36,443 nt of DNA from the IMG/VR virus record IMGVR_UViG_3300045988_129709; one strand, given 5' to 3'. The notes below the pieces were generated by a model. It searched no databases and was not told where the DNA came from. It saw only the letters and a list, made by a program, of their open reading frames with translations. Positions within the stretch are counted from its first letter, which is position 1. The number at the start of each line of letters is the position of its first letter. Made by a program: the position numbers and the translations under genes. Positions 1 to 36,443 of the stretch are shown piece after piece. The stretch is from a virus.

Positions 1-55
1 AACATGAACAAAATTAATAAAAGTCTTGAGGCTGTACACACACACACACACACAC
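1..55. repeat. Terminal direct repeat (copy 1) identical to 36389..36443; assembly overlap of a circular/circularly permuted genome
   Basis: Exact 55-nt identity read directly from both ends, ending within the AC tract. Confidence 0.9.
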
Positions 56-63
56 ACTTATAG
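4..63 (+). CDS. 19-aa leader-type ORF MNKINKSLEAVHTHTHTHL containing the (AC)11 tract (His-Thr repeat); RBS AAAGGAG 8 nt upstream (at 36375-36381 in circular context)
   Basis: ATG at 4, TAG at 61-63, and a strong SD at the wrapped position. It sits 27 nt upstream of the first tail-fibre-cluster gene. Confidence 0.4.
   Translation: MNKINKSLEAVHTHTHTHL
36..57. repeat. (AC)11 dinucleotide microsatellite
   Basis: Perfect 22-nt AC tract in a genome that is otherwise about 70% AT. A second, truncated copy lies at the window end (>=10 units). Confidence 0.95.
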
Positions 64-90
64 TTTAGTGAAGAAAAGAGGTGAGCTTAT

Positions 91-535
91 ATGAGCAAAC
101 CTCTTATTTTAGAGTTAAAAGAAAAAAATATAATTACAGCAACTTCAAATAGGCAAACAATAAATATATCAACACCTTGGGGAAAGCAAACTTTACCGTT
201 AGATGATACAGAAATTGTAGGAAACAAGTTGACAGTGATAAATAATACAATCGTTATAGGAGAGGGAGTTACTAAAATAAAATGCTCGGCAAATTGTGTA
301 GGAGTAAGTCATGCTATTCAGGGAGATAAAATTTTTGAGATTGAAAAGAACTCACAGATAATAAAAAGTCAGTATCATTCTCGGCGAAGATAAAATAGGT
401 TTTTTTGGAGCAAGCGTTAATCCAGTTTTAATTACTGTACAAAAAGGAGATAAAATATCAATAGCAATACAGAGTGGCTTTAAAGGAGATGTAGAATATT
501 TGGGTGCAGATTTAACAGTTGAAGTATTTGAATAA
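91..535 (+). CDS. Putative tail fibre/baseplate-associated protein, interrupted: ORF 91..393 continues in the +1 frame (approx 365..535) after an A5 run at approx 363-367; fused product about 157 aa
   Basis: The track ORF ends ...IIKSQYHSRRR*. The adjacent frame reads KVSIILGEDKIGFFGASVNPVLITVQKGDKISIAIQSGFKGDVEYLGADLTVEVFE* with no start codon. Removing one A gives a coherent single protein. Confidence 0.5.
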
Positions 536-567
536 ACTGTGATTAATATGAAGGGAAAAGATATGAT

Positions 568-1665
568 ATGAAAGATAAGAAAATAAAAGTAGCAGACAAT
601 AGTATGGTATATTTTAATGATAAAGTTCTTGGAATAGATGGAGAAAATTTACAGGGAAAAATAATATTCTATTTTGAGAACTTTAAAAATGGAGTAGCAT
701 GGTTAGAATTTGAAAAAGAAGATGGAACAAAAAAGTACATACCAATGGATAAAGTAAATGAAACATATGAGGTAGAAATAAAACCAAGCTTACTTTCAGA
801 TACGTCAATAATATATTTGCAACTAAGAATAACAGAAGATGAAAACGAAAACGGAATACCAGTGTTTAAATCAAAAAAATTCTATATGAATATCTTGGAT
901 TCAATAAATGCAACATCTACAATAGAAGAAGATTACCCTGATATTTTAGATGTTTTAAACAATAAGCAAGACAAGTTAAAAGCAGGGAAAAATATAACAA
1001 TAGGAAACAACGTAATAAGTGCAAATTTTAAAGAAACAGCAGATAAAGAATACGTTGATAATCAAGACAAAGATATACTAAAAAGTGCTAAAGAATATGC
1101 TGATAATCAAGTACCAAATGTAGTTGAAACATATGTAAATGAACATAAAGAAGAACTAAAGGGAGAAAAAGGAGACATTGGAGAAACTGGACCTCAGGGA
1201 ATACAAGGACCTAAAGGCGATGTTGGTCCTCAAGGAAAACAAGGAATCCAAGGACCGATTGGACCACAAGGAGAGCAAGGAATACAAGGTATTCAAGGAG
1301 AAAAAGGTGTTGATGGAAAAAATGGAAAAGACGGTACTAATGGCAAGGATGGTATAAATGGAACTAATGGGAAAAATTATTCAGTAGAAATAGTAGAAAG
1401 TACATTGACCACACAAGAAATAGAACCAAATAAATTCTATAAATTCGGGGAAGTATCAAGTTTAAATATCACACTTGCAGCAATAACAGATACATCAGTT
1501 TTAAATGAGTTTATGTTTGAATTTATAAGTGGAGCTACTGCAACTACCTTAACTTTACCTAATACAGTTAAATGGCTAGAAACACCGACTATTGAAGCAA
1601 ACAAAATATATCAATGTAGTATAGTAGACAATATTGGTGTGTTGTTGGGGGTGTCAAATGTCTAA
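568..1665 (+). CDS. Tail fibre protein with collagen-like Gly-X-Y triple-helix repeats (about 25 G-X-Y units, residues about 195-270)
   Basis: The uninterrupted run [72 protein letters not shown]. Such collagen-like stretches are typical of Firmicute phage fibre proteins. Confidence 0.8.
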
Positions 1666-2646: not shown

Positions 2647-2862
2647 TTGGAAGCAGTAAAAAAAGAAATGAAGGAAAATCAAAAAGAACATGACAAAACA
2701 TATTTGACAGATTTTCTATCTGACATAGAAAACAAACAACCAAAGTCAGATATTCAAATTAAAAGAGCTTATGAAATATATGAAGAATATACAAACCTTA
2801 AAGGAAATTCATATGTACATAGTAAATGGGAAGAATTAGAAAAGAAAGGGGCATTGAAATGA
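2647..2862 (+). CDS. Hypothetical soluble 71-aa protein immediately upstream of lysin (not holin-like)
   Basis: ORF with a TTG start. Its stop overlaps the lysin start codon (ATGA). No hydrophobic segment. Confidence 0.4.
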   Translation: MEAVKKEMKENQKEHDKTYLTDFLSDIENKQPKSDIQIKRAYEIYEEYTNLKGNSYVHSKWEELEKKGALK

Positions 2863-4241
2863 AAAAACAAGATAGAAATATAACCATAGCAGTTATAGTG
2901 GCTATGGTTATGATATTTTTTAGTGCAATATTTTTTATAGATGATAAGGAGCTAAAAAAAGATGTAGTAGAAAAAGTTACAGACACTGTAACAGATATAG
3001 CAACAAGAGAAATGAGTAAAGAAGAAATAGAATCTTTACCATCTACAGAAATAATAGAACAAACAGAAGAACAAGAGAATGCTGTATCAAATGAGCAAGA
3101 AGGAGAAGAAACAGAAGGATTTCAACTTCAAGGAGAAATAGCTTATGAAGGAGCAAAAGCAGAAACTTGGAATGTAGAATTAGGGGACTATGTTGGATTA
3201 ACATATTATTCACAATTAGATAGTAGATGGGCAAGCAAGATGTATTCTAGTGTAGGCAATCCAAACCAAACAATAGGTTCTAGTGCTTGTGGCCCTACAT
3301 GTGCTTCAATGGTAGTAACAGCTACAAAAGGAGCAATAACACCTGATACTATGTCAGATTTATTCGTAAAATACGGTTATCGTTCAGCTAACAATGGAAC
3401 GTACTGGAGTGCTTTTAGAGCTGTAGCAGATGAGTTCAATATCGGTTATACAGAAATAACAGATATTCAAAGAGCATTACAATTATTGCAAAACAATAAT
3501 TATGTAATAGTAAGTTGTGGAAACGGATTGTTTACAACGGGTGGACACTTTATCGTTCTAGTTGGAATAGATGGAGATACATTAAAGATATATGATCCAT
3601 ATTTATATAGTGGCAAATTCTCAACAAGTACAAGAAGAGGCAAAGTAACTGTAGATGGAAATACAGTATATTGTAGCATAGACAATTTTAGAAACTATGC
3701 TAATTATAGTAAATTCTTTGCATTTGCTCATGATGGAAATGTACAAGTAAACAACACACGTCCAGTTACAACACAAGCATATACTAGATATGTAAATGCT
3801 AAAATAGGATTAAATATAAGAAATAAGCCTAATGGATATATTGTAGGTGGATTATCTAATGGTACAGCAGTAACAGTATATGAAACAGATGGCAATTGGA
3901 GTAGAATAGGGACAAATAAATGGGTTTCTAGTAATTATCTAACAAGTTATATGGCTGTAGCTTCAAATTCGGTTAAAACAATTTCTGGCGTAAAATACAC
4001 TACAGGAAAATACAAAGTTAATGCTAGTATATTAAATGTTCGTACAGGTCCAAGTACAAAATATAAAATAAAAGGATATAAACAATTAACAGCAAATGCA
4101 AGATACCAAAATAAAAGATTAGGAAATCAATATACTAATGGATTAAAACGTGGAGTAGTAACAACAGTTACTAAAGTTCAAAATGGATTTGGATTAATTC
4201 CAAGTGGGTGGATTTCATTAAATTATTGTACTAAATTATAA
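2859..4241 (+). CDS. Cell-wall hydrolase/endolysin: N-terminal signal-anchor TM segment, papain-like cysteine peptidase (C39-like) domain, two C-terminal SH3b domains
   Basis: MKKQDRNITIAVIVAMVMIFFSAIFFI is a TM segment. SSACGPTCASMV...GGHFIVLVGIDGD is a Cys/His peptidase core. The YTRYVNAKIGLNIRNKPNG...SNYL and YKVNASILNVRTGPSTKYK...GWISLNY motifs are SH3_3-like. The start has the RBS AAGAAAGGGG. Confidence 0.75.
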   Translation: MKKQDRNITIAVIVAMVMIFFSAIFFIDDKELKKDVVEKVTDTVTDIATREMSKEEIESLPSTEIIEQTEEQENAVSNEQEGEETEGFQLQGEIAYEGAKAETWNVELGDYVGLTYYSQLDSRWASKMYSSVGNPNQTIGSSACGPTCASMVVTATKGAITPDTMSDLFVKYGYRSANNGTYWSAFRAVADEFNIGYTEITDIQRALQLLQNNNYVIVSCGNGLFTTGGHFIVLVGIDGDTLKIYDPYLYSGKFSTSTRRGKVTVDGNTVYCSIDNFRNYANYSKFFAFAHDGNVQVNNTRPVTTQAYTRYVNAKIGLNIRNKPNGYIVGGLSNGTAVTVYETDGNWSRIGTNKWVSSNYLTSYMAVASNSVKTISGVKYTTGKYKVNASILNVRTGPSTKYKIKGYKQLTANARYQNKRLGNQYTNGLKRGVVTTVTKVQNGFGLIPSGWISLNYCTKL

Positions 4242-6168: not shown

Positions 6169-7242
6169 CTAATTAACACAATTTTTGATATAATTATTTA
6201 TTAAATCATCTGCATTTTCTCTTTGTTCATCCAAATGAGTATAAACTTCATAAATCATAGAAGCGGAAGCATGTCCCATTAAGGCTTGCGCTTTTTTTAT
6301 TTTGACACCAGCATAATATAACATTGTACAATATGAATGTCTTAATTGATGACATGTAAACTTTATATTATTTTCTTTGTTCTTATTTATACTATATAAA
6401 AAACTTTCTAAGTGTCTTCTTACTGCAACATCAGTCAACATTTTGCCGTCTTTTTCTTTTACAAATAATAATCCATTTTTAGAATTATTAACTAAATTAA
6501 CAACTATATCATATATGTTATCTAAAATAGGTATAGTACGAACTCTATTATTTTTAGTAGTTTTTACTATAGGTTGGTTATGTAGAAGAACAACAGCTTT
6601 GTTAATAGAAATAGTTTTATTTTTTAAGTCAACATCATCAACAGTTAATGGGATTATTTCTTCTTTTCTCATGCCAGTATAACGCATCAAAATAAAAAAT
6701 GGGGCATATTTGTGTGTTGAATTAATAAGAAGATTATCTTCGTCAATTGTTAAAGGCATACGTTCATTTTTTATAACTTTTAACGGTTTTATATTACTAG
6801 CAACATTTTTAATTATTATATCATTATCAATAGCATCATTTAAAATTCTTTTCACATAAGCAAGCGTTTTATTTGCAGTTGTAGGTGTATTTTTCATATC
6901 TGAAAGTAATTGTTCAACATCATATTTTTTTATATCTTTAATTTTTTTAAATCCAAGAGATGGAATAATATGGTTGTTTACAATGGATTTATATTCTTCA
7001 ATTGTTCTAATTTCTTTACCAGCAGAATTTAATTCAATCCACTTAATTGCGAAATTCTTCATCTTTATATTCTCTATATCAGATAGTCCATTATAAGAAT
7101 TATGCATAAATTCAATATATTGTTTGTACAAATCTTTTATATCTTTAGAATATATATATTTAGATTTTCCGTTTGTAGTAATTTTTTTCATTAATCTTCC
7201 GTCTGTTCTGATAGTATAAGTCATATCTTTATATTTGTTCAT
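6169..7242 (-). CDS. int: Tyrosine-type site-specific integrase
   Basis: C-terminal motifs HQLRHSY and LMGHASASMIYEVYTHL match the R..HxxR..Y catalytic signature. The gene is adjacent to attP. Confidence 0.9.
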   Translation of the reverse strand: MNKYKDMTYTIRTDGRLMKKITTNGKSKYIYSKDIKDLYKQYIEFMHNSYNGLSDIENIKMKNFAIKWIELNSAGKEIRTIEEYKSIVNNHIIPSLGFKKIKDIKKYDVEQLLSDMKNTPTTANKTLAYVKRILNDAIDNDIIIKNVASNIKPLKVIKNERMPLTIDEDNLLINSTHKYAPFFILMRYTGMRKEEIIPLTVDDVDLKNKTISINKAVVLLHNQPIVKTTKNNRVRTIPILDNIYDIVVNLVNNSKNGLLFVKEKDGKMLTDVAVRRHLESFLYSINKNKENNIKFTCHQLRHSYCTMLYYAGVKIKKAQALMGHASASMIYEVYTHLDEQRENADDLINNYIKNCVN

Positions 7243-12943: not shown

Positions 12944-13645
12944 TTGTACAAAAGGAGGACAAACAATGTGGCAAAGGATAGTTTTATATTATATCTAGAC
13001 CAAAAAGAAATATTTGGAATGCTAGAAGATGAAGAAGCAGGACAACTTATAAAAGCAATATTTGAATACGAAGAAGCAGGGCAAATGCCAAAGTTAGATA
13101 AATCTTTAAGAATAGCATTCATACCAATAAAAAATGCTCTAGATAGAAATAAAGAAAAATATCAAAAAGTAGTAGAAAGAAATAAGCAGAACATTGAAAA
13201 AAGATGGAATAAAGAAAATACCAAAAATACCACTGGTAAAAATGGTATACGAAAAAATACCAAAAATACCGATAATGATAATGAACATGATAATGATAAT
13301 GATAGTGATAATGAACATGATAGTGTAAATGATAATGACAATATAGTAAGCGACAGTTGTGTTGACGGCTTACAAAAAATTATTGATTTTTACAATGAAA
13401 ATATAGGACTTATTACTCCTTATGGGGTAGAAGTTTTAGAAGATTATTCTAAAGATATGCCAACAGACTTAATAATTTATGCAATGCAAATTAGTGTAGA
13501 AGCTAATAAAAGAACAATTAAGTACATAAAAGCTATATTAAATAATTGGCAAAAAGCAGGAATAAGAACATTAGTACAAGCAAAGGATGAAAACCACAAA
13601 AAGAAAAATGAAAGTAAAGAAATAGAGGAGTGGTTAAATGAATAA
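12944..13645 (+). CDS. Replisome organiser / DnaD-domain replication initiation protein (likely start GTG 12968); Asp/Asn-rich low-complexity linker
   Basis: The N-terminus FILYLDQKEIFGMLEDEEAGQLIKAIFEYEE resembles a phage replisome organiser N-domain. The C-terminus ...IIDFYNENIGLITPYGVEVLEDYSKDMPTDLIIYAMQISVEANKRTIKYIKAILNNWQKAGIRTLVQAKDE is DnaD/DnaB_2-like. Confidence 0.6.
   Translation: MYKRRTNNVAKDSFILYLDQKEIFGMLEDEEAGQLIKAIFEYEEAGQMPKLDKSLRIAFIPIKNALDRNKEKYQKVVERNKQNIEKRWNKENTKNTTGKNGIRKNTKNTDNDNEHDNDNDSDNEHDSVNDNDNIVSDSCVDGLQKIIDFYNENIGLITPYGVEVLEDYSKDMPTDLIIYAMQISVEANKRTIKYIKAILNNWQKAGIRTLVQAKDENHKKKNESKEIEEWLNE
13214..13342. repeat. Iteron-like direct repeats inside the replisome-organiser gene: GAAAATACCAAAAATACC (x2) followed by tandem GATAATGATAATGAACAT-type 18-mers (about 4 units)
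   Basis: Read directly at approx 13214-13270 and 13271-13342. A candidate internal origin of replication. Confidence 0.4.
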
Positions 13646-31245: not shown

Positions 31246-33147
31246 ATGGCAGTAGCAGGAAGCTTAACGTACGATACAAATATAGATAAAAGTGGATTTG
31301 AAAAAGGATTAAATAGCTTAAAAAACAGTACACAAAACGTTGGAACAAAAATAAAAAACATAGTAGTTGCACTTGGAATAGATAAAATAATATCAGCAAC
31401 GATGAATACAATAAAAAATTCGGTAAATGATGCAGTTTCAAGAATAGACACGTTAAACAACTATCCTAAAGTAATGAAGAATTTAGGAATAAGTAGTGAG
31501 GAATCAGAGGCTTCTATAAAAAAGTTAAGCGAAAAATTAACAGGATTACCAACTACATTGGATAGTGCTTCATTAGCAGTACAAAGATTCACAAGTAAAA
31601 ACAGCGACATAGAGAAAAGCACTGATTATTTCTTGGCGTTAAACAATGCGTTATTGGCTGGTGGTGCATCAGCAGATATACAATCATCTGCTATGGAACA
31701 GTTAAGCCAAGCATATGCTAAAGGCAAACCAGACATGATGGAATGGAGAAGCTTACAGACTGCAATGCCAGCACAATTAAACCAAGTGGCAAAAGCTTTT
31801 AATATGACATCTGATGAGCTTGGAGAAGCTTTAAGAAATGGCAAAATATCAATGGACGATTTTATGGATAAAATCGTTGAACTAAACGAAAATGGTGCTG
31901 GAGAATTTCAATCATTTGAAGAGCAGGCAAAAAATTCAACAGGTGGTATAGCTACATCAATTACAAATATGAAAACCGCTATAACACGTGGGGTTTCAGA
32001 AATAGTAAAATCAATAGATAAGCTTTTGGATAGTATAGGTTTGGGAGGAATTAGTAATGTACTAAATCAAATAGGAAAAGAATCAGAAGGAATATTAAAA
32101 AATATTGCCAATGTTTTAAATGAAATAGCTGAAAATGGGATAAGTTCTGTATTAGAAACAGCCAAACAGAAAGGGCCTGAAATAATAACCAACTTAGTAA
32201 ATGGTATTGTATCAAAAATTCCAGATATAATCAGCACAATCTCAAACATACTTATACAATTTATACAAGTTATAATTGCAAATTTACCTGCTATAATTAG
32301 TGGTGGTATGCAAATAATATCGGCATTAATAACAGGAATAGCTCAGCAGTTACCAACTTTAATTCCTATGGCATTAGAGCTAATTCTAACCTTAGTAACA
32401 AGTTTGTTAGACAACATAGATCAGTTAATAGATGCAGGAATCAACTTAATTATAGGATTAGCAGAAGGATTAATTAATGCAATTCCTATACTAATAGAAA
32501 AAATACCAATAATAATAGAAAAATTAATAAATGCAATAGTTAATAATTTACCTAAAATAATTCAAATGGGTATAACATTAATAGTGAAGTTGGCAGAAGG
32601 ATTAATAAAAGCAATTCCTCAATTAGTTAGCAAAATACCACAAATAATAGGTGCATTAGTTTCTGGATTTGGACAGTTTTTAAGTAATATGTGGGATGTT
32701 GGCAAAAATATTGTTGAAGGAATATGGAATGGAATAAAAAATGCAAAAGATTGGCTACTAGGAAAAGTAAAAGAATGGTGTGGAAACATTCTAAATGGAA
32801 TAAAAGCTTTTTTTGGTATACATTCACCTTCGAGAGTAATGAGAGATGAAATTGGTAAACGTCTACCACAAGGTGTTGCAGTGGGTATAGAAGCGGATAC
32901 AGATGAAGCATTAAAAGCAATAGACAATATGAATAACGACATTATGTCTGAAATGAATAAAGCAGTAGCATTCGAAACTGGTTCGATAAATGCTAATGCA
33001 AGTGTAAAATCTAACAATTCTATGCTAAATGTAATACATGCAACATTTAATATAGATGGAAGTGTAGAGATAGATGGACAAAAAACAGGAAGAATTTTAA
33101 CACCTTATATGACTAAAACATTAAAGACAGGAGGTGCATTCGCATAG
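31246..33147 (+). CDS. Tape measure protein
   Basis: N-terminal TMP region, a long hydrophobic/helical central segment and a C-terminal region. 633 aa. Canonical position. Confidence 0.85.
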   Translation: MAVAGSLTYDTNIDKSGFEKGLNSLKNSTQNVGTKIKNIVVALGIDKIISATMNTIKNSVNDAVSRIDTLNNYPKVMKNLGISSEESEASIKKLSEKLTGLPTTLDSASLAVQRFTSKNSDIEKSTDYFLALNNALLAGGASADIQSSAMEQLSQAYAKGKPDMMEWRSLQTAMPAQLNQVAKAFNMTSDELGEALRNGKISMDDFMDKIVELNENGAGEFQSFEEQAKNSTGGIATSITNMKTAITRGVSEIVKSIDKLLDSIGLGGISNVLNQIGKESEGILKNIANVLNEIAENGISSVLETAKQKGPEIITNLVNGIVSKIPDIISTISNILIQFIQVIIANLPAIISGGMQIISALITGIAQQLPTLIPMALELILTLVTSLLDNIDQLIDAGINLIIGLAEGLINAIPILIEKIPIIIEKLINAIVNNLPKIIQMGITLIVKLAEGLIKAIPQLVSKIPQIIGALVSGFGQFLSNMWDVGKNIVEGIWNGIKNAKDWLLGKVKEWCGNILNGIKAFFGIHSPSRVMRDEIGKRLPQGVAVGIEADTDEALKAIDNMNNDIMSEMNKAVAFETGSINANASVKSNNSMLNVIHATFNIDGSVEIDGQKTGRILTPYMTKTLKTGGAFA

Positions 33148-33278: not shown

Positions 33279-34688
33279 ATGCAAGAAATGCAAATATACG
33301 ATATAAATAATAAACTGTTATTTACAGGATATTTAGAAAGTTATAAGATGCCTGAATTAACAATGTTAAATAGCATAGAAAACGAATTAACATTAACTTT
33401 AATGACTCCACGTACAATGACAATAAAAAAGACTGTAACAATCGTAACAACAGACACAATGTTAAATATTATTAATAGAATCTTTCAACCACTTTACAAC
33501 GATGGGTTTGTATTAAAAGAAAGTAATTTCGACAACAAAGCTATAACAGTAAAATTAATAGCGAGAACAATAGAAGAATGCATGAAAATTTTGTCTACTA
33601 GATATGCACTATATTGGAATATAAACGAATTAAAAGAAATTACAGTAAACAGCATTGAATATCAGTTTAATAAACCTTTTACAAAATCGATAAATATAAA
33701 CAATTATAAAAAACAAATAAAAGGATTTACAAAGTTGGTTCCAAGTGTAGAAGGAACAGACTATGCTAATATAATAAATGTAAAAAATGCAAGAGTATTT
33801 TATAGCTTTATAAATAAAGATATGAACATAACATTAAAAAAAGACGGAAAACTTGAGTTTGAAAATCCTGTCGACATTAGCTATAGTACTGCGAAAAGGT
33901 TAAATGCAGGAAGTTTTATAGATGGTGCTGAAATTGCAGTTAGCAATCTACAAATCATATATCATGATAGTAGTGGAAATTCTAAAGATGCTTATATTAT
34001 AAGCGGAATTAATACAAGTGGAGACATAAAACCTGGTTTAAATGTAAAAGATATAGGAACAGATAGCAAAGAAGATAGCTTATTTGTTTTAGATATGGAT
34101 AGTATGTTTAATTATTTAGCAACAGGATTTACATATAAAGGTGAGGACACCATAACAATAGACCAAATTTATTCTGAGGCAGCTTTAAGATATTCAAGTA
34201 TGAAACTTCTTAATTGGCATGAAATAGAAAAAAACGCAGGCACTATAACGACAACCGGTCAAATAGAAAAAACTCTTGATGCTAAAGAAAAGTGGTTTAC
34301 TGTACAAGAATTAATAGAATATGTCAGAGGAAACTTTGTTTCTAATGATAAAAATACAAATATTATAAAAATTTATTGTGATAAAGATAACAAAATAGAA
34401 ATAGGAGATAGGTTAGAAATAGATTTACCAGAACTATATACACAAGGAAATTATATAGCTACAGATATGACAATTTCAAAAGAATGGAATAATCCTTATG
34501 AATATATTATAGAACTAAGAAACACAGCATTATCTGAAAATTATGCTAATTTATTTCAAGATTCATTAGATACAGAAGAACAAGCAAATCAAGTAGAGGT
34601 TGAATACGTTGTAGAATATGCAGAAGAAGAAACAATAGCAGAGGTACACGACATCGAATACTTACCTTCTCAGGAGGTGCAATCATGA
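33279..34688 (+). CDS. Distal tail protein (Dit-like, extended)
   Basis: First gene after the tape measure gene. 469 aa. Confidence 0.5.
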   Translation: MQEMQIYDINNKLLFTGYLESYKMPELTMLNSIENELTLTLMTPRTMTIKKTVTIVTTDTMLNIINRIFQPLYNDGFVLKESNFDNKAITVKLIARTIEECMKILSTRYALYWNINELKEITVNSIEYQFNKPFTKSININNYKKQIKGFTKLVPSVEGTDYANIINVKNARVFYSFINKDMNITLKKDGKLEFENPVDISYSTAKRLNAGSFIDGAEIAVSNLQIIYHDSSGNSKDAYIISGINTSGDIKPGLNVKDIGTDSKEDSLFVLDMDSMFNYLATGFTYKGEDTITIDQIYSEAALRYSSMKLLNWHEIEKNAGTITTTGQIEKTLDAKEKWFTVQELIEYVRGNFVSNDKNTNIIKIYCDKDNKIEIGDRLEIDLPELYTQGNYIATDMTISKEWNNPYEYIIELRNTALSENYANLFQDSLDTEEQANQVEVEYVVEYAEEETIAEVHDIEYLPSQEVQS

Positions 34689-35692
34689 AAATAAAAAACG
34701 AAAGCGTAACAATAAAAATAGGAAACAAAGAAAAATCTTTTCACAATCTAATTTTAAATAGCTATATAGACTTATTTGCAGATAGTTTTTTGAAATTTAA
34801 AAATAAATTACTTACATATTGCTACGTTAAATTTGATACAACCCAGACTATAAATGAAAATAGTACTACAATGGAATATGACACTATATTAGAAACAAAC
34901 TTTTACAAGACAAAAGAATCTTTCTCAGAAAACAATATTATAAATGATTATATATATGATATCCCTGTAATGGAACAAGAGGAAATATCAACTTTTGTCG
35001 GAAAGAAAATAACAGGAATAGGATTTGGTGACTATGACAATGACAGTGGACAATATTTATTATATGCATTTTTAGACGTTAGTAAATATCAAATTATAGT
35101 ACAAGAAGGACAAGAAGTTGTAATATCAAGAAAAGATAAAATAACGAGTGATTTGCAATTTTATTCACCATTTTCAAGCGTGAAATATCCAACACATTTG
35201 ACATCAAGAGGAATAATAGAAAAAATAGGAATGGAATACAACGAAATCTTTTCACAACTATACTCTGTAGGTTTTGGAACGCTATATAGTAAAATAGATA
35301 CTGAAGAAATACCTGTTTCGGAATTAGATTTTAAGAAAGAAGGAACAGGAATAGTAACTTTAATAGGAGCGCAAGACTATGCGGTATACCCAAATACTGA
35401 TTTATTTCCAAGCCCTGAGTTATATCCAGGGCGAAGTTCGGAAGGATTAAAAAAATTAGAAATACCAGATAGAGGAGAAGGACAATATCCTTCTTTTTTG
35501 CTTTTTCCGTCTACAGAGTTGTACCCAAAGCAATCTTCTCCAAAATATGTAATTTATAAGTTTAAATTGTATCGAAGACGATATGAAGGAGAATTAGAAA
35601 TAGTCGAGGATACAGGATTGTATTATTATCAATCACAATCAATAGATGGGACAGGAGCAATAAAACTAACTATAAAATATGAAAGGGGTTAA
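34685..35692 (+). CDS. Tail-tip/baseplate protein with tandem LFPS(P/T)ELYP repeats
   Basis: DLFPSPELYPGRSSEG and LFPSTELYPKQSSP. Confidence 0.45.
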   Translation: MKIKNESVTIKIGNKEKSFHNLILNSYIDLFADSFLKFKNKLLTYCYVKFDTTQTINENSTTMEYDTILETNFYKTKESFSENNIINDYIYDIPVMEQEEISTFVGKKITGIGFGDYDNDSGQYLLYAFLDVSKYQIIVQEGQEVVISRKDKITSDLQFYSPFSSVKYPTHLTSRGIIEKIGMEYNEIFSQLYSVGFGTLYSKIDTEEIPVSELDFKKEGTGIVTLIGAQDYAVYPNTDLFPSPELYPGRSSEGLKKLEIPDRGEGQYPSFLLFPSTELYPKQSSPKYVIYKFKLYRRRYEGELEIVEDTGLYYYQSQSIDGTGAIKLTIKYERG

Positions 35693-35695
35693 ATT

Positions 35696-36001
35696 ATGAT
35701 AATTTTTGAAAATCTGCCAAGTGAAAAAACACCGATAGATGCAGACAATTTAAATGCAATTCAACACACGAAAAGAGTATTGGTAACAACAAACACAGAA
35801 ATAACAGCAAATACAAATTACACAGTTCCTGAAAAGTATTACGTAGGTAAAAATCATCTATGGATATACTTCGAAGGAACTTTGTTAATTAAGAATGAGA
35901 ATTACATAGAAACAGGAATAAACGGAGAAGAAAGTACAGCAATTCAATTCCTAGATTGGGATGTACCAATAGGAAGTAAATTAGAATTTTTATATAAGTA
36001 A
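35696..36001 (+). CDS. Tail fibre-associated hypothetical protein
   Basis: ORF. Confidence 0.4.
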   Translation: MIIFENLPSEKTPIDADNLNAIQHTKRVLVTTNTEITANTNYTVPEKYYVGKNHLWIYFEGTLLIKNENYIETGINGEESTAIQFLDWDVPIGSKLEFLYK

Positions 36002-36013
36002 AGGAGTGAGAAT

Positions 36014-36367
36014 ATGAGTAAGCCAAACAATTTAAAAATATGTTCAACAGAAGAAGTAAAAACAGGAGAATACTGGATAGATGGAAAGCCTTTATATAGA
36101 AAAGTTATATCATGTGGAGCTTTGCCAAATTCAACCTCAAAATTAGTGAATCATAATATCTCAGACATAGATAATATCAGAATGTATGGTTTTGCAGTTA
36201 GAACAAGTGATAGAAGAACATTTCCATTACCATTTTCAAGTGTAGATGGTGTAGGACATATTCAATTAGATTTGACATCAACACAAATACAAATAACAAC
36301 AAATAATGATAGAAGTTCATTTAATACAAGTTATGTAATATTAGAATACACAAAAACAACAGATTAA
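36014..36367 (+). CDS. Putative tail fibre / receptor-binding protein N-terminal module
   Basis: GEYWIDGKPLYRKVI resembles a motif recalled from Firmicute phage fibre N-termini. It is followed in the circle by the (AC)n leader ORF. Confidence 0.45.
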   Translation: MSKPNNLKICSTEEVKTGEYWIDGKPLYRKVISCGALPNSTSKLVNHNISDIDNIRMYGFAVRTSDRRTFPLPFSSVDGVGHIQLDLTSTQIQITTNNDRSSFNTSYVILEYTKTTD

Positions 36368-36388
36368 ATGAAGATGAAAGGAGAAATA

Positions 36389-36443
36389 AACATGAACAAA
36401 ATTAATAAAAGTCTTGAGGCTGTACACACACACACACACACAC
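36389..36443. repeat. Terminal direct repeat (copy 2), truncated inside (AC)n tract
   Basis: Identical to 1..55. Confidence 0.9.

Follow-up and report, generated by a model that had tools for sequence, protein, structure and literature searches.

The 36,443-nucleotide stretch of viral DNA analysed here (IMG/VR record IMGVR_UViG_3300045988_129709, hereafter the window, meaning the whole stretch) opens with a perfect run of AC dinucleotides, (AC)11, inside a short upstream open reading frame (uORF) that precedes a gene for a predicted fibre-tip knob, and the question that this locus raises is whether a repeat in such a place could act as a switch on the gene behind it. In our judgement the chances are about even that (AC)n is a slippage-prone repeat in a translated, coupling uORF, which would switch knob output through the reading frame of the uORF. 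From its sequence the locus qualifies as a real hypermutable repeat in a coupling leader and as a candidate phage contingency locus, while the switching of expression is plausible but unproven.

The final 55 bases of the window equal its opening 55, and the contig is therefore a circle of 36,388 bp. The resulting 55-nt direct repeat (1-55 = 36389-36443) is an assembler overlap with k = 55 and no biological terminal repeat, so that features at 1-55 occur twice in the window. The elements of the junction are as follows.

36377..36383, plus strand: Shine-Dalgarno sequence (SD) AAAGGAG of the uORF, read from the sequence, 8 nt ahead of the uORF ATG.
4..63, plus strand: the uORF, 19 codons, encoding MNKINKSLEAVHTHTHTHL and a stop; ATG at 4-6 (the same ATG again at 36392-36394), TAG at 61-63.
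36..57, plus strand: (AC)11, perfect dinucleotide repeat of 22 nt, partly repeated at 36424-36443 through the 55-nt overlap.
61..68, plus strand: two out-of-frame stops right after the tract, TAG 61-63 for n = 8 or 11 and TAG 66-68 for n = 10.
71..110, plus strand: predicted hairpin over the initiation region of the knob gene, outer stem 71-74/107-110.
92..94, plus strand: TGA overlapping the downstream ATG (ATGA), the uORF stop at n = 9 or 12, the coupled state.
91..393, plus strand: the downstream gene as called, 100 aa, N-terminal two thirds of a predicted C1q/TNF-like fibre-tip knob.
365..535, plus strand: continuation in the +1 frame, the last four knob strands (from KVSIILGEDK to ADLTVEVFE and a stop), homologous to the C-terminus of intact relatives.

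With a G+C content of 28% the window is indeed AT-rich, as an earlier sequence-only reading had remarked when it drew attention to the perfect 22-nt tract, and (AC)11 is the sole dinucleotide repeat of at least 4 units other than AT/TA in these 36.4 kb. The chance expectation for such a tract is ~3e-9 under a first-order Markov model, and the window holds no homopolymer run of 9 or more bases. The good ribosome-binding site (RBS) that the same reading had placed at the wrapped end of the contig, in front of the small ORF, is the AAAGGAG listed above. The ATG of the knob gene at 91 has AGAGGTGA ahead of it and follows the end of the uORF by 27 nt. The place at which the uORF stops relative to this ATG depends on n: the stop overlaps the start (+1) at n = 9 or 12, lies at -25 nt at n = 10, where the frame ends at GTT TAG, and at -30 nt at n = 8 or 11, where it ends at TTA TAG. 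The earlier frame arithmetic, in which (AC)12 leads to a TGA overlapping the ATG and (AC)10 to GTT TAG, is correct on both counts. In the window allele (n = 11) the stop is 30 nt upstream, so the overlap of stop and start that marks coupling is absent from the allele that was sequenced. The frame used at n = 9 or 12, which ends in TYSLVKKRGELI and a stop, matches the uninterrupted ORFs of relatives. A hidden fusion of leader and knob was considered and rejected, as each of the three frames meets a stop at the ATG or ahead of it, and that of the ATG itself has a TGA at 82-84; the minus strand of the window has no ORF across the tract.

Variation in tract length was found among near-identical phages. 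Independent assemblies were retrieved by exact-protein look-up of the flanking genes, and their leaders are identical base for base, copy number aside (loci are cited by L numbers).

(AC)8: L001 (SRR24556891) and L007 (ERZ27244772).
(AC)9: L004 (SRR35113978).
(AC)10: L002 (SRR34974935), L003 (ERZ501947) and L005 (ERZ913296).
(AC)11: the window, L009 (ERZ913871) and L050 (ERZ913879).

One of the three (AC)11 loci was recovered from a third sample belonging to one and the same project. Tracts of 16, 18, 20 and 22 nt are thus carried by phages with 0-1 mismatches in most pairs (2 kb on each side, 4 kb in total), and because four lengths coexist with so few flank mismatches, the tract is, as judged from these comparisons, mutating far faster than ordinary sites. 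The sequence-only reading had suggested looking for related prophages with the same leader and other repeat numbers, and these are such phages. In a sister clade, whose knob protein is 92% identical, the tract is interrupted, (AC)4-6 GC (AC)4, and occurs in three lengths. Two further contigs are cut at the repeat: that of L020 opens inside a tract of at least 15 AC units, and that of L006 (k = 31) ends after (AC)7. The break of the circle at this very point had earlier been called consistent with length heterogeneity. The terminal 55-mer of the window ends exactly after (AC)10, which would be the branch vertex of a mixture of (AC)10 and (AC)11 reads, and the end of the L006 contig would likewise fit mixed alleles, although such ends do not prove them. 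An uninterrupted repeat, variation in copy number and a target with a presumed part in host interaction, three of the marks of a slippage-type contingency locus, are all found here at the level of sequence. A DNA search with the junction gave no match in the phage GenBank collection, and exact scans of IMG/VR with the leader sequence gave none either, the IMG/VR relatives having emerged only via the conserved start of the knob gene.

All related clades have homologous uORFs, 17-32 codons long. In the alignment the homology extends over the entire leader, with the repeat-bearing middle as the chief indel, and the SD and ATG of the uORF are retained in every diverged clade at a spacing of 7-10 nt, with intervening bases that differ. 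Repeat-poor relatives (L021-27, L042 and the first of two copies in L038) have an uninterrupted uORF of 25-28 codons, the stop of which overlaps the downstream start. The P0004 clade has no microsatellite, just ACAC, and its upstream ORF of 26 codons (MKRKSVGELRENYTLINGKMGGEDNV and a stop) ends in a TAA that overlaps the downstream start (ATGTCTAA). Copy 1 of L038 has ctgtATATATACACttatag instead of the tract and encodes MKKLIKALRLYIYTYSLVKKRGELI, with a TGA overlapping the ATG of a different gene of 114 aa, and in L046 the uORF (MNKIAKTLQSVYIYISNSINRKEVSLYE and a stop) has a central (TA)7 and stops in overlap with the downstream start (ATGAGTAA). At the same mid-uORF position AG units vary over the range (AG)3-10, and a further clade carries them in the four copy numbers below.

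(AG)4: L048, coupled.
(AG)5: L039/40, stop 30 nt before the ATG.
(AG)6: L047, stop 23 nt before the ATG.
(AG)10: L049, coupled.

The (AG)6 of L047 and the (AG)4 of L048 stand in sequences that show a single mismatch over 2 kb. Stop and start overlap in L004, L031, L021-27, L038 copy 1, L042, L046, L048 and L049, among which (AC)9 in L004, (AC)4GC(AC)4 in L031, (AG)4 in L048 and (AG)10 in L049 are natural coupled repeat alleles. The coupling geometry that had been proposed from the window alone is therefore real, in that the uORF stops of repeat-poor relatives overlap the downstream start, and the uORF appears to be a conserved element whose ground state couples to the next gene.

Two loci deserve mention for their arrangement. 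L038 (IMGVR_UViG_3300045988_149678) has two leader modules in tandem on the minus strand at 4796-4236, namely a coupled uORF of TA/AC type before the 114-aa gene and an AG-type uORF before the knob gene; it also measures 36,388 bp, yet it is a different phage from the one in the window. In L019 (2071-2117; SAMEA3663046 co-assembly) the left half of the leader with (AC)7 is found elsewhere, preceded by a holin and followed by two small ORFs and an amidase. A 1-nt indel alters the peptide frame of this copy, and the conservation there would for this reason be at the DNA or RNA level and not at that of the peptide.

The initiation region of the knob gene is predicted to be masked by a hairpin. 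Its SD stem pairs AAGAGGU (76-82) with ACCUCUU (99-105, codons 4-6) and its inner stem GCUU (85-88) with GAGC (93-96), with A and U of the start codon (91-92) in the loop at 89-92 and its G (93) as the first base of the 93-96 arm. The predicted energy is -15.1 kcal/mol (z -5.0), and 0 of 200 shuffles fold as well. Across 7 sequence types the pairing holds in 94% of cells, against 41-55% for slid registers. In the inner stem GCUU/GAGC is replaced by AGAC/GUCU alongside a synonymous switch of a Ser codon (AGC to UCU); compensatory double changes occur at three pairs, and pairing is also preserved by G-U changes that arose independently in L042 and L046. Taken together this suggests moderate covariation support for the hairpin, and sequestration of the initiation region, as expected for translational coupling, is thus found here in the form of a predicted and covarying structure. 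The predicted fold is the same for n = 2 to 15, with the tract itself unpaired and an unpaired probability of 0.25 for the SD throughout, and a structure that varies with tract length was accordingly ruled out. A search of Rfam 15 over the junction gave no match at the gathering score, with two sub-threshold matches only, on the GT-repeat strand.

These features suggest how a frame-dependent switch might operate. The uORF would be translated, and its ancestral role may have been to bring ribosomes through the hairpin that hides the SD and start codon of the knob gene. Normally it would end on the knob start codon (in ATGA, or in the sequences of the P0004 clade and L046 given above), and since it terminates on top of that start, we propose that the knob gene is translated by coupling. 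Each AC unit gained or lost would shift the frame of the uORF. With n = 0 mod 3 (9, 12) the overlap would be restored and output would presumably be high: ribosomes would pass through the 5' side of the hairpin and end translation of the uORF on the start codon, which would thereby be exposed for re-initiation. With n = 1 mod 3 (10) they would terminate 25 nt before the ATG, and with n = 2 mod 3 (8, 11, thus also the window) 30 nt before it and short of the SD stem, which in both non-coupled frames would stay masked. After induction, knob protein would then be made in amounts that vary among three states, heritably and reversibly, and selection may maintain this variation.

The target of such a switch would be a single small gene with a peculiarity of its own. 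The knob product as called is truncated, ending at a TAA (391-393), and the +1 frame runs on for 56 codons; the shift point is likely, on sequence grounds, to be ATA AAA AGT at the A5 run 363-367. Profile searches with PHROGs and Pfam gave no match for the knob gene or its four upstream neighbours, and the C1q/TNF-like fold is a prediction from the modelled structure of an intact homologue. Elsewhere, in other phages, the knob domain is the C-terminus of longer proteins encoded directly after Dit and Tal. The knob is of receptor-binding type, and genes of this kind are among those whose expression phages are known to diversify. The frame break could be a programmed +1 frameshift or the sign of a conserved dead gene. 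The same break is found in clades diverged by about 17-19% and, at the main receptor-binding position, in fused versions (L036, L037); because these share it, recoding is suggested rather than decay. In L021, L038 and L039 there is a TAG at codon 5 of the +1 frame, and the differences in the +1 continuation are spread over the codon positions as 18/10/19, with no third-position bias. In L020 the tract of at least 15 AC units precedes an intact knob gene, with a leader frame that is not readable.

The first 12 residues of the knob, MSKPLILELKEK, are conserved and also head an unrelated 127-aa head in L042 (5585, minus strand). As this start precedes unrelated head domains, the leader and MSKPLILELKEK together suggest a common front end (adaptor, recombination) for exchangeable heads. 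The same start precedes C1q-like knobs in other loci, including L020 at 64 and L046 at 679.

Several observations weigh against a frame-dependent switch. In 3 of the 8 loci of the interrupted-tract clade the uORF is impaired, in two by a change of ATG to ATA and in one by a weakened RBS. Coupled frames make up no more than about one third of the repeat-bearing alleles, as random frames would give. The knob gene is equipped with its own strong SD, and the out-of-frame stops are no more than 25-30 nt upstream, for which reasons re-initiation might occur in all three states. The compensatory changes in the hairpin come to about three independent events, which is a small number. A broken frame was seen in the knob gene wherever that gene was read in the AC8-11, interrupted-AC and AG clades, and the three frame-readable leaders before clearly intact genes are all coupled, a pattern that would fit drift in a decaying cassette (about p = 0.055, by hand calculation).

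Much of this is what one would expect of an unselected microsatellite in a poorly constrained or decaying stretch, before a frame-broken and possibly dead knob cassette, with a length variation that is real but functionally silent; we take this possibility seriously, doubtful as it seems to us on balance. It would account for the broken knob frame in every long AC- or AG-tract clade whose gene was read, for coupled leaders ahead of intact genes, for frame states that appear random and for the lack of third-position bias in the +1 continuation. The tract of the sister clade, broken by a point mutation in the manner of decaying microsatellites, and the two loci there without an ATG and one with a weakened RBS point the same way. 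Against silence stands the fact that at least 3 independent dinucleotide repeats (AC, AG, TA) arose within one spot of ~15 nt, in a genome which otherwise has only short AT runs, and that long pure tracts (8-11, 10 and at least 15 units) persist. Moreover, the tract of at least 15 AC units and the (TA)7 stand before intact knob genes, the uORF signals and the hairpin are conserved, and a frame break common to clades diverged by ~17-19% and to fused versions at the main position would be odd for a dead gene.

The tract might instead act by its length and not through the frame, as an unstructured CA-rich spacer that serves as standby site or enhancer or sets the distance between ribosome and hairpin, with graded output. 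The tract is predicted to be unpaired at every length, and graded leader repeats are known from Helicobacter pylori tlpB (PMC8295292) and Haemophilus influenzae hmw1A (PMC12721329). We consider this unlikely, given that the predicted accessibility of the SD is constant over n = 2 to 15, that the AG or TA of sister clades would not share a CA-specific property, and that the conserved stop/start overlap points to the frame. Less likely again is a role as recombination linker, in which the leader with (AC/GT)n would be a homology patch or hotspot for the exchange of knob cassettes. The conservation of the leader and the first 12 codons before unrelated heads, and the presence of the left leader half with (AC)7 in another neighbourhood after a holin, would suit such a role, but the visible mosaic breakpoints lie after codon ~12-17 of the downstream gene and not at the tract, and the role needs no repeat and leaves the AG and TA repeats at the same site unexplained. 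We regard as very improbable a promoter in which the tract sets the spacing between TTGAGG (26-31) as -35 and TATAGT (59-64) as -10, like the (TA)n of H. influenzae hif. There are hexamer-like words on both sides of the tract, and in L019 (n = 7) the spacing to TAGTAT is 18 nt; at n = 8-11, by contrast, the spacing is 21-27 nt against the usual 16-18 nt, the hexamers agree with the consensus at 8 of 12 positions and went unreported by the scanner in L019 and L001, promoter-like matches in these two loci are no more frequent than in shuffles, and the hexamers are missing from the AG and TA clades at a site inside a long late operon. This reading was rejected on spacing and hexamer quality. An assembly or sequencing artefact, in which polymerase chain reaction (PCR) stutter or assembler choices cause the length differences, was rejected as barely credible, for although dinucleotide repeats stutter in PCR-based libraries and three contigs break in or at the tract (window, L006, L020), every k-mer used (31, 55, 127, 141) exceeds the tract length of 16-22 nt, and the alleles are clean and discrete across assemblers and projects and have been recovered from independent samples, 8 from two and 10 and 11 from three each.

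The leader and knob gene sit in the middle of the distal-tail module and not at its head. The sequence-only reading had taken the gene at 91 for the first distal-tail gene, which is wrong, as the tape measure and four tail genes come before it on the circle; this gene does not head the whole fibre cluster and is a single small fibre-tip knob gene. Its surroundings are as follows.

31246-33147: tape measure, which precedes the leader on the circle.
33279-36367: four tail proteins without annotation, between tape measure and leader.
36014..36367, plus strand: distal-tail protein of 117 aa, fold not recognised, the upstream neighbour of the leader, with no family matches.
548..571, plus strand: seven-codon ORF, MKGKDMI and a stop, whose TGA overlaps the ATG (568) of the collagen-like fibre gene; the second coupling mini-ORF of the module.
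568..1665, plus strand: collagen-like tail fibre gene, 365 aa, matching PF01391 Collagen and several tail-fibre PHROGs.
2826-4241: lysin.
6169-7242, minus strand: integrase.

The MKGKDMI mini-ORF is kept in L020, L021 and L028, and in L043-45 a comparable seven-codon ORF (MERRIIV and a stop) overlaps the knob start, so that short coupling ORFs seem, from their sequences, to be recurrent in this tail module. The collagen-like fibre is a second length-variable repeat of the module, in frame: it has 9-nt periodic repeats at 1158-1377 of the window and measures 365 aa there, 284 aa in L003, 362 aa in L047 and 371 aa in L049, among near-identical phages. A hexanucleotide tandem repeat, (GATAAT)12 with 74% matches, is located at 13271-13342 of the window within an ORF of the replication region (12944-13645).

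Among species-representative genomes the 117-aa neighbour has two distant relatives only (29-37% identity), and because these genomes gave no more than that, the host was read from the GroEL beside the integrase. The same integrase adjoins groES/groEL in long metagenomic contigs, and the sources label that GroEL as Clostridiaceae/Clostridia bacterium. The phage is therefore a temperate one of siphovirus type whose host is a human-gut Clostridia bacterium, in agreement with the Firmicute host named earlier. In L013-L018 (11304-13294) the prophage integrase abuts groEL/groES of a Clostridiaceae metagenome-assembled genome. The early region of this prophage family is mosaic, and with its integrase protein listed in 237 blocks of the searched collection the family appears to be widespread across gut metagenomes.

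If the uORF frame does switch the knob gene, a broader proposal can be made, which we offer tentatively and hold to be somewhat less than evenly poised: that temperate phages of gut Clostridia repeatedly evolved AC, AG and TA repeats in the middle of a coupling leader before exchangeable knobs, and that slippage makes of these a stochastic, heritable, three-state translational switch, giving bursts of virions in which an accessory receptor-binding knob varies in amount or presence. Phage contingency loci have been recognised recently, as homopolymers within genes of Campylobacter phages and T-even coliphages, and the present locus would extend them to temperate phages of abundant gut Firmicutes, to dinucleotide repeats and to a logic based on the frame of a leader ORF. 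Prophages identical outside the tract could then yield virions that differ in their host-recognition equipment, which would bear on host-range prediction and on phage-based manipulation of the microbiome. The combination of a repeat in a short ORF, an ancestral stop overlapping the start of a receptor-binding gene and a hairpin-masked RBS is a signature that can be searched for in metagenomes. Even if neutral, the locus is a handy hypervariable marker for following this prophage across samples.

It remains to compare the locus with known systems. In the literature searched, the coverage of which is incomplete so that absence is not proven, we found no repeat inside a coupling leader ORF and no dinucleotide repeats in phage tail modules. 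The earlier statement that contingency loci are undescribed for Firmicute phage fibres is outdated in that homopolymer contingency loci of phages are known, whereas no dinucleotide or leader-ORF case was found in these searches. The closest of the known loci is in Fletchervirus phages of Campylobacter, for which Sorensen and co-workers (2021, Cell Rep 35:109214) reportedly described hypermutable polyG tracts in receptor-binding-protein genes, with slippage and mixed progeny. As in that case, a slipping simple repeat borne by a phage is tied to a host-recognition gene. The Fletchervirus tract, however, is homopolymeric, belongs to the coding sequence of the receptor-binding gene in a lytic phage of a Gram-negative host, and acts as a direct on/off frameshift, whereas here the repeat is a dinucleotide, the ORF that contains it lies upstream of and apart from the gene in a temperate Clostridia phage, and the proposed effect is indirect, via coupling; no homopolymeric G tract in a receptor-binding coding sequence was found in the window. 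PolyG tracts in receptor-binding genes of Campylobacter phages are known phage contingency loci according to a reference in PMC10877375. In coliphages T2 and T4, slippage-prone homopolymers of at least 6 nt within ORFs have been proposed to serve bet-hedging, and that study found repeats depleted in tail-fibre genes and does not mention dinucleotides (Gomez, Barrick, Waters, bioRxiv 10.1101/2025.10.21.683753). The likeness lies in slipping repeats in phage genomes, and the difference in that those of T2 and T4 are homopolymers in ORFs only.

Among bacteria, the copy number of dinucleotide (CT/AG) repeats at the 5' end of H. pylori outer-membrane protein genes decides which frame is read, and at H. 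influenzae lic1 a (CAAT)n repeat, together with alternative starts, gives three expression levels by frame. These repeats resemble the present tract in being short-unit repeats near a 5' end with a frame set by copy number, yet they lie in the frame of the regulated gene itself, whereas here the frame of the leader ORF shifts and that of the gene is untouched. The heptamer repeat in the 5' untranslated region of hmw1A acts through RNA structure with RNase III, and the G-repeat of tlpB is the target of the small RNA RepG, both graded by length (PMC12721329 and PMC8295292, respectively). Both are transcribed repeats upstream of a coding sequence with a post-transcriptional effect, as proposed here; in the present case no structure is predicted for the tract, and what is proposed to vary is the frame in which a leader is translated.

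Heterogeneous host recognition, the possible outcome, is also reached by DNA inversion of tail-fibre genes (Gin of Mu, Cin of P1) and by diversity-generating retroelements (Bordetella phage BPP-1). Their mechanisms differ from slippage in relying on a site-specific recombinase or a reverse transcriptase, neither of which is involved here. For the proposed coupling itself the models are classical, namely the coat-replicase junction of MS2 and the ATGA or TGATG junctions of operons, at which a structured RBS is unmasked. The likeness lies in an upstream frame that ends at the downstream start and an SD within a predicted hairpin; the classical junctions are fixed, whereas in the phages described here the overlap of stop and start would be made and unmade by a hypermutable repeat.

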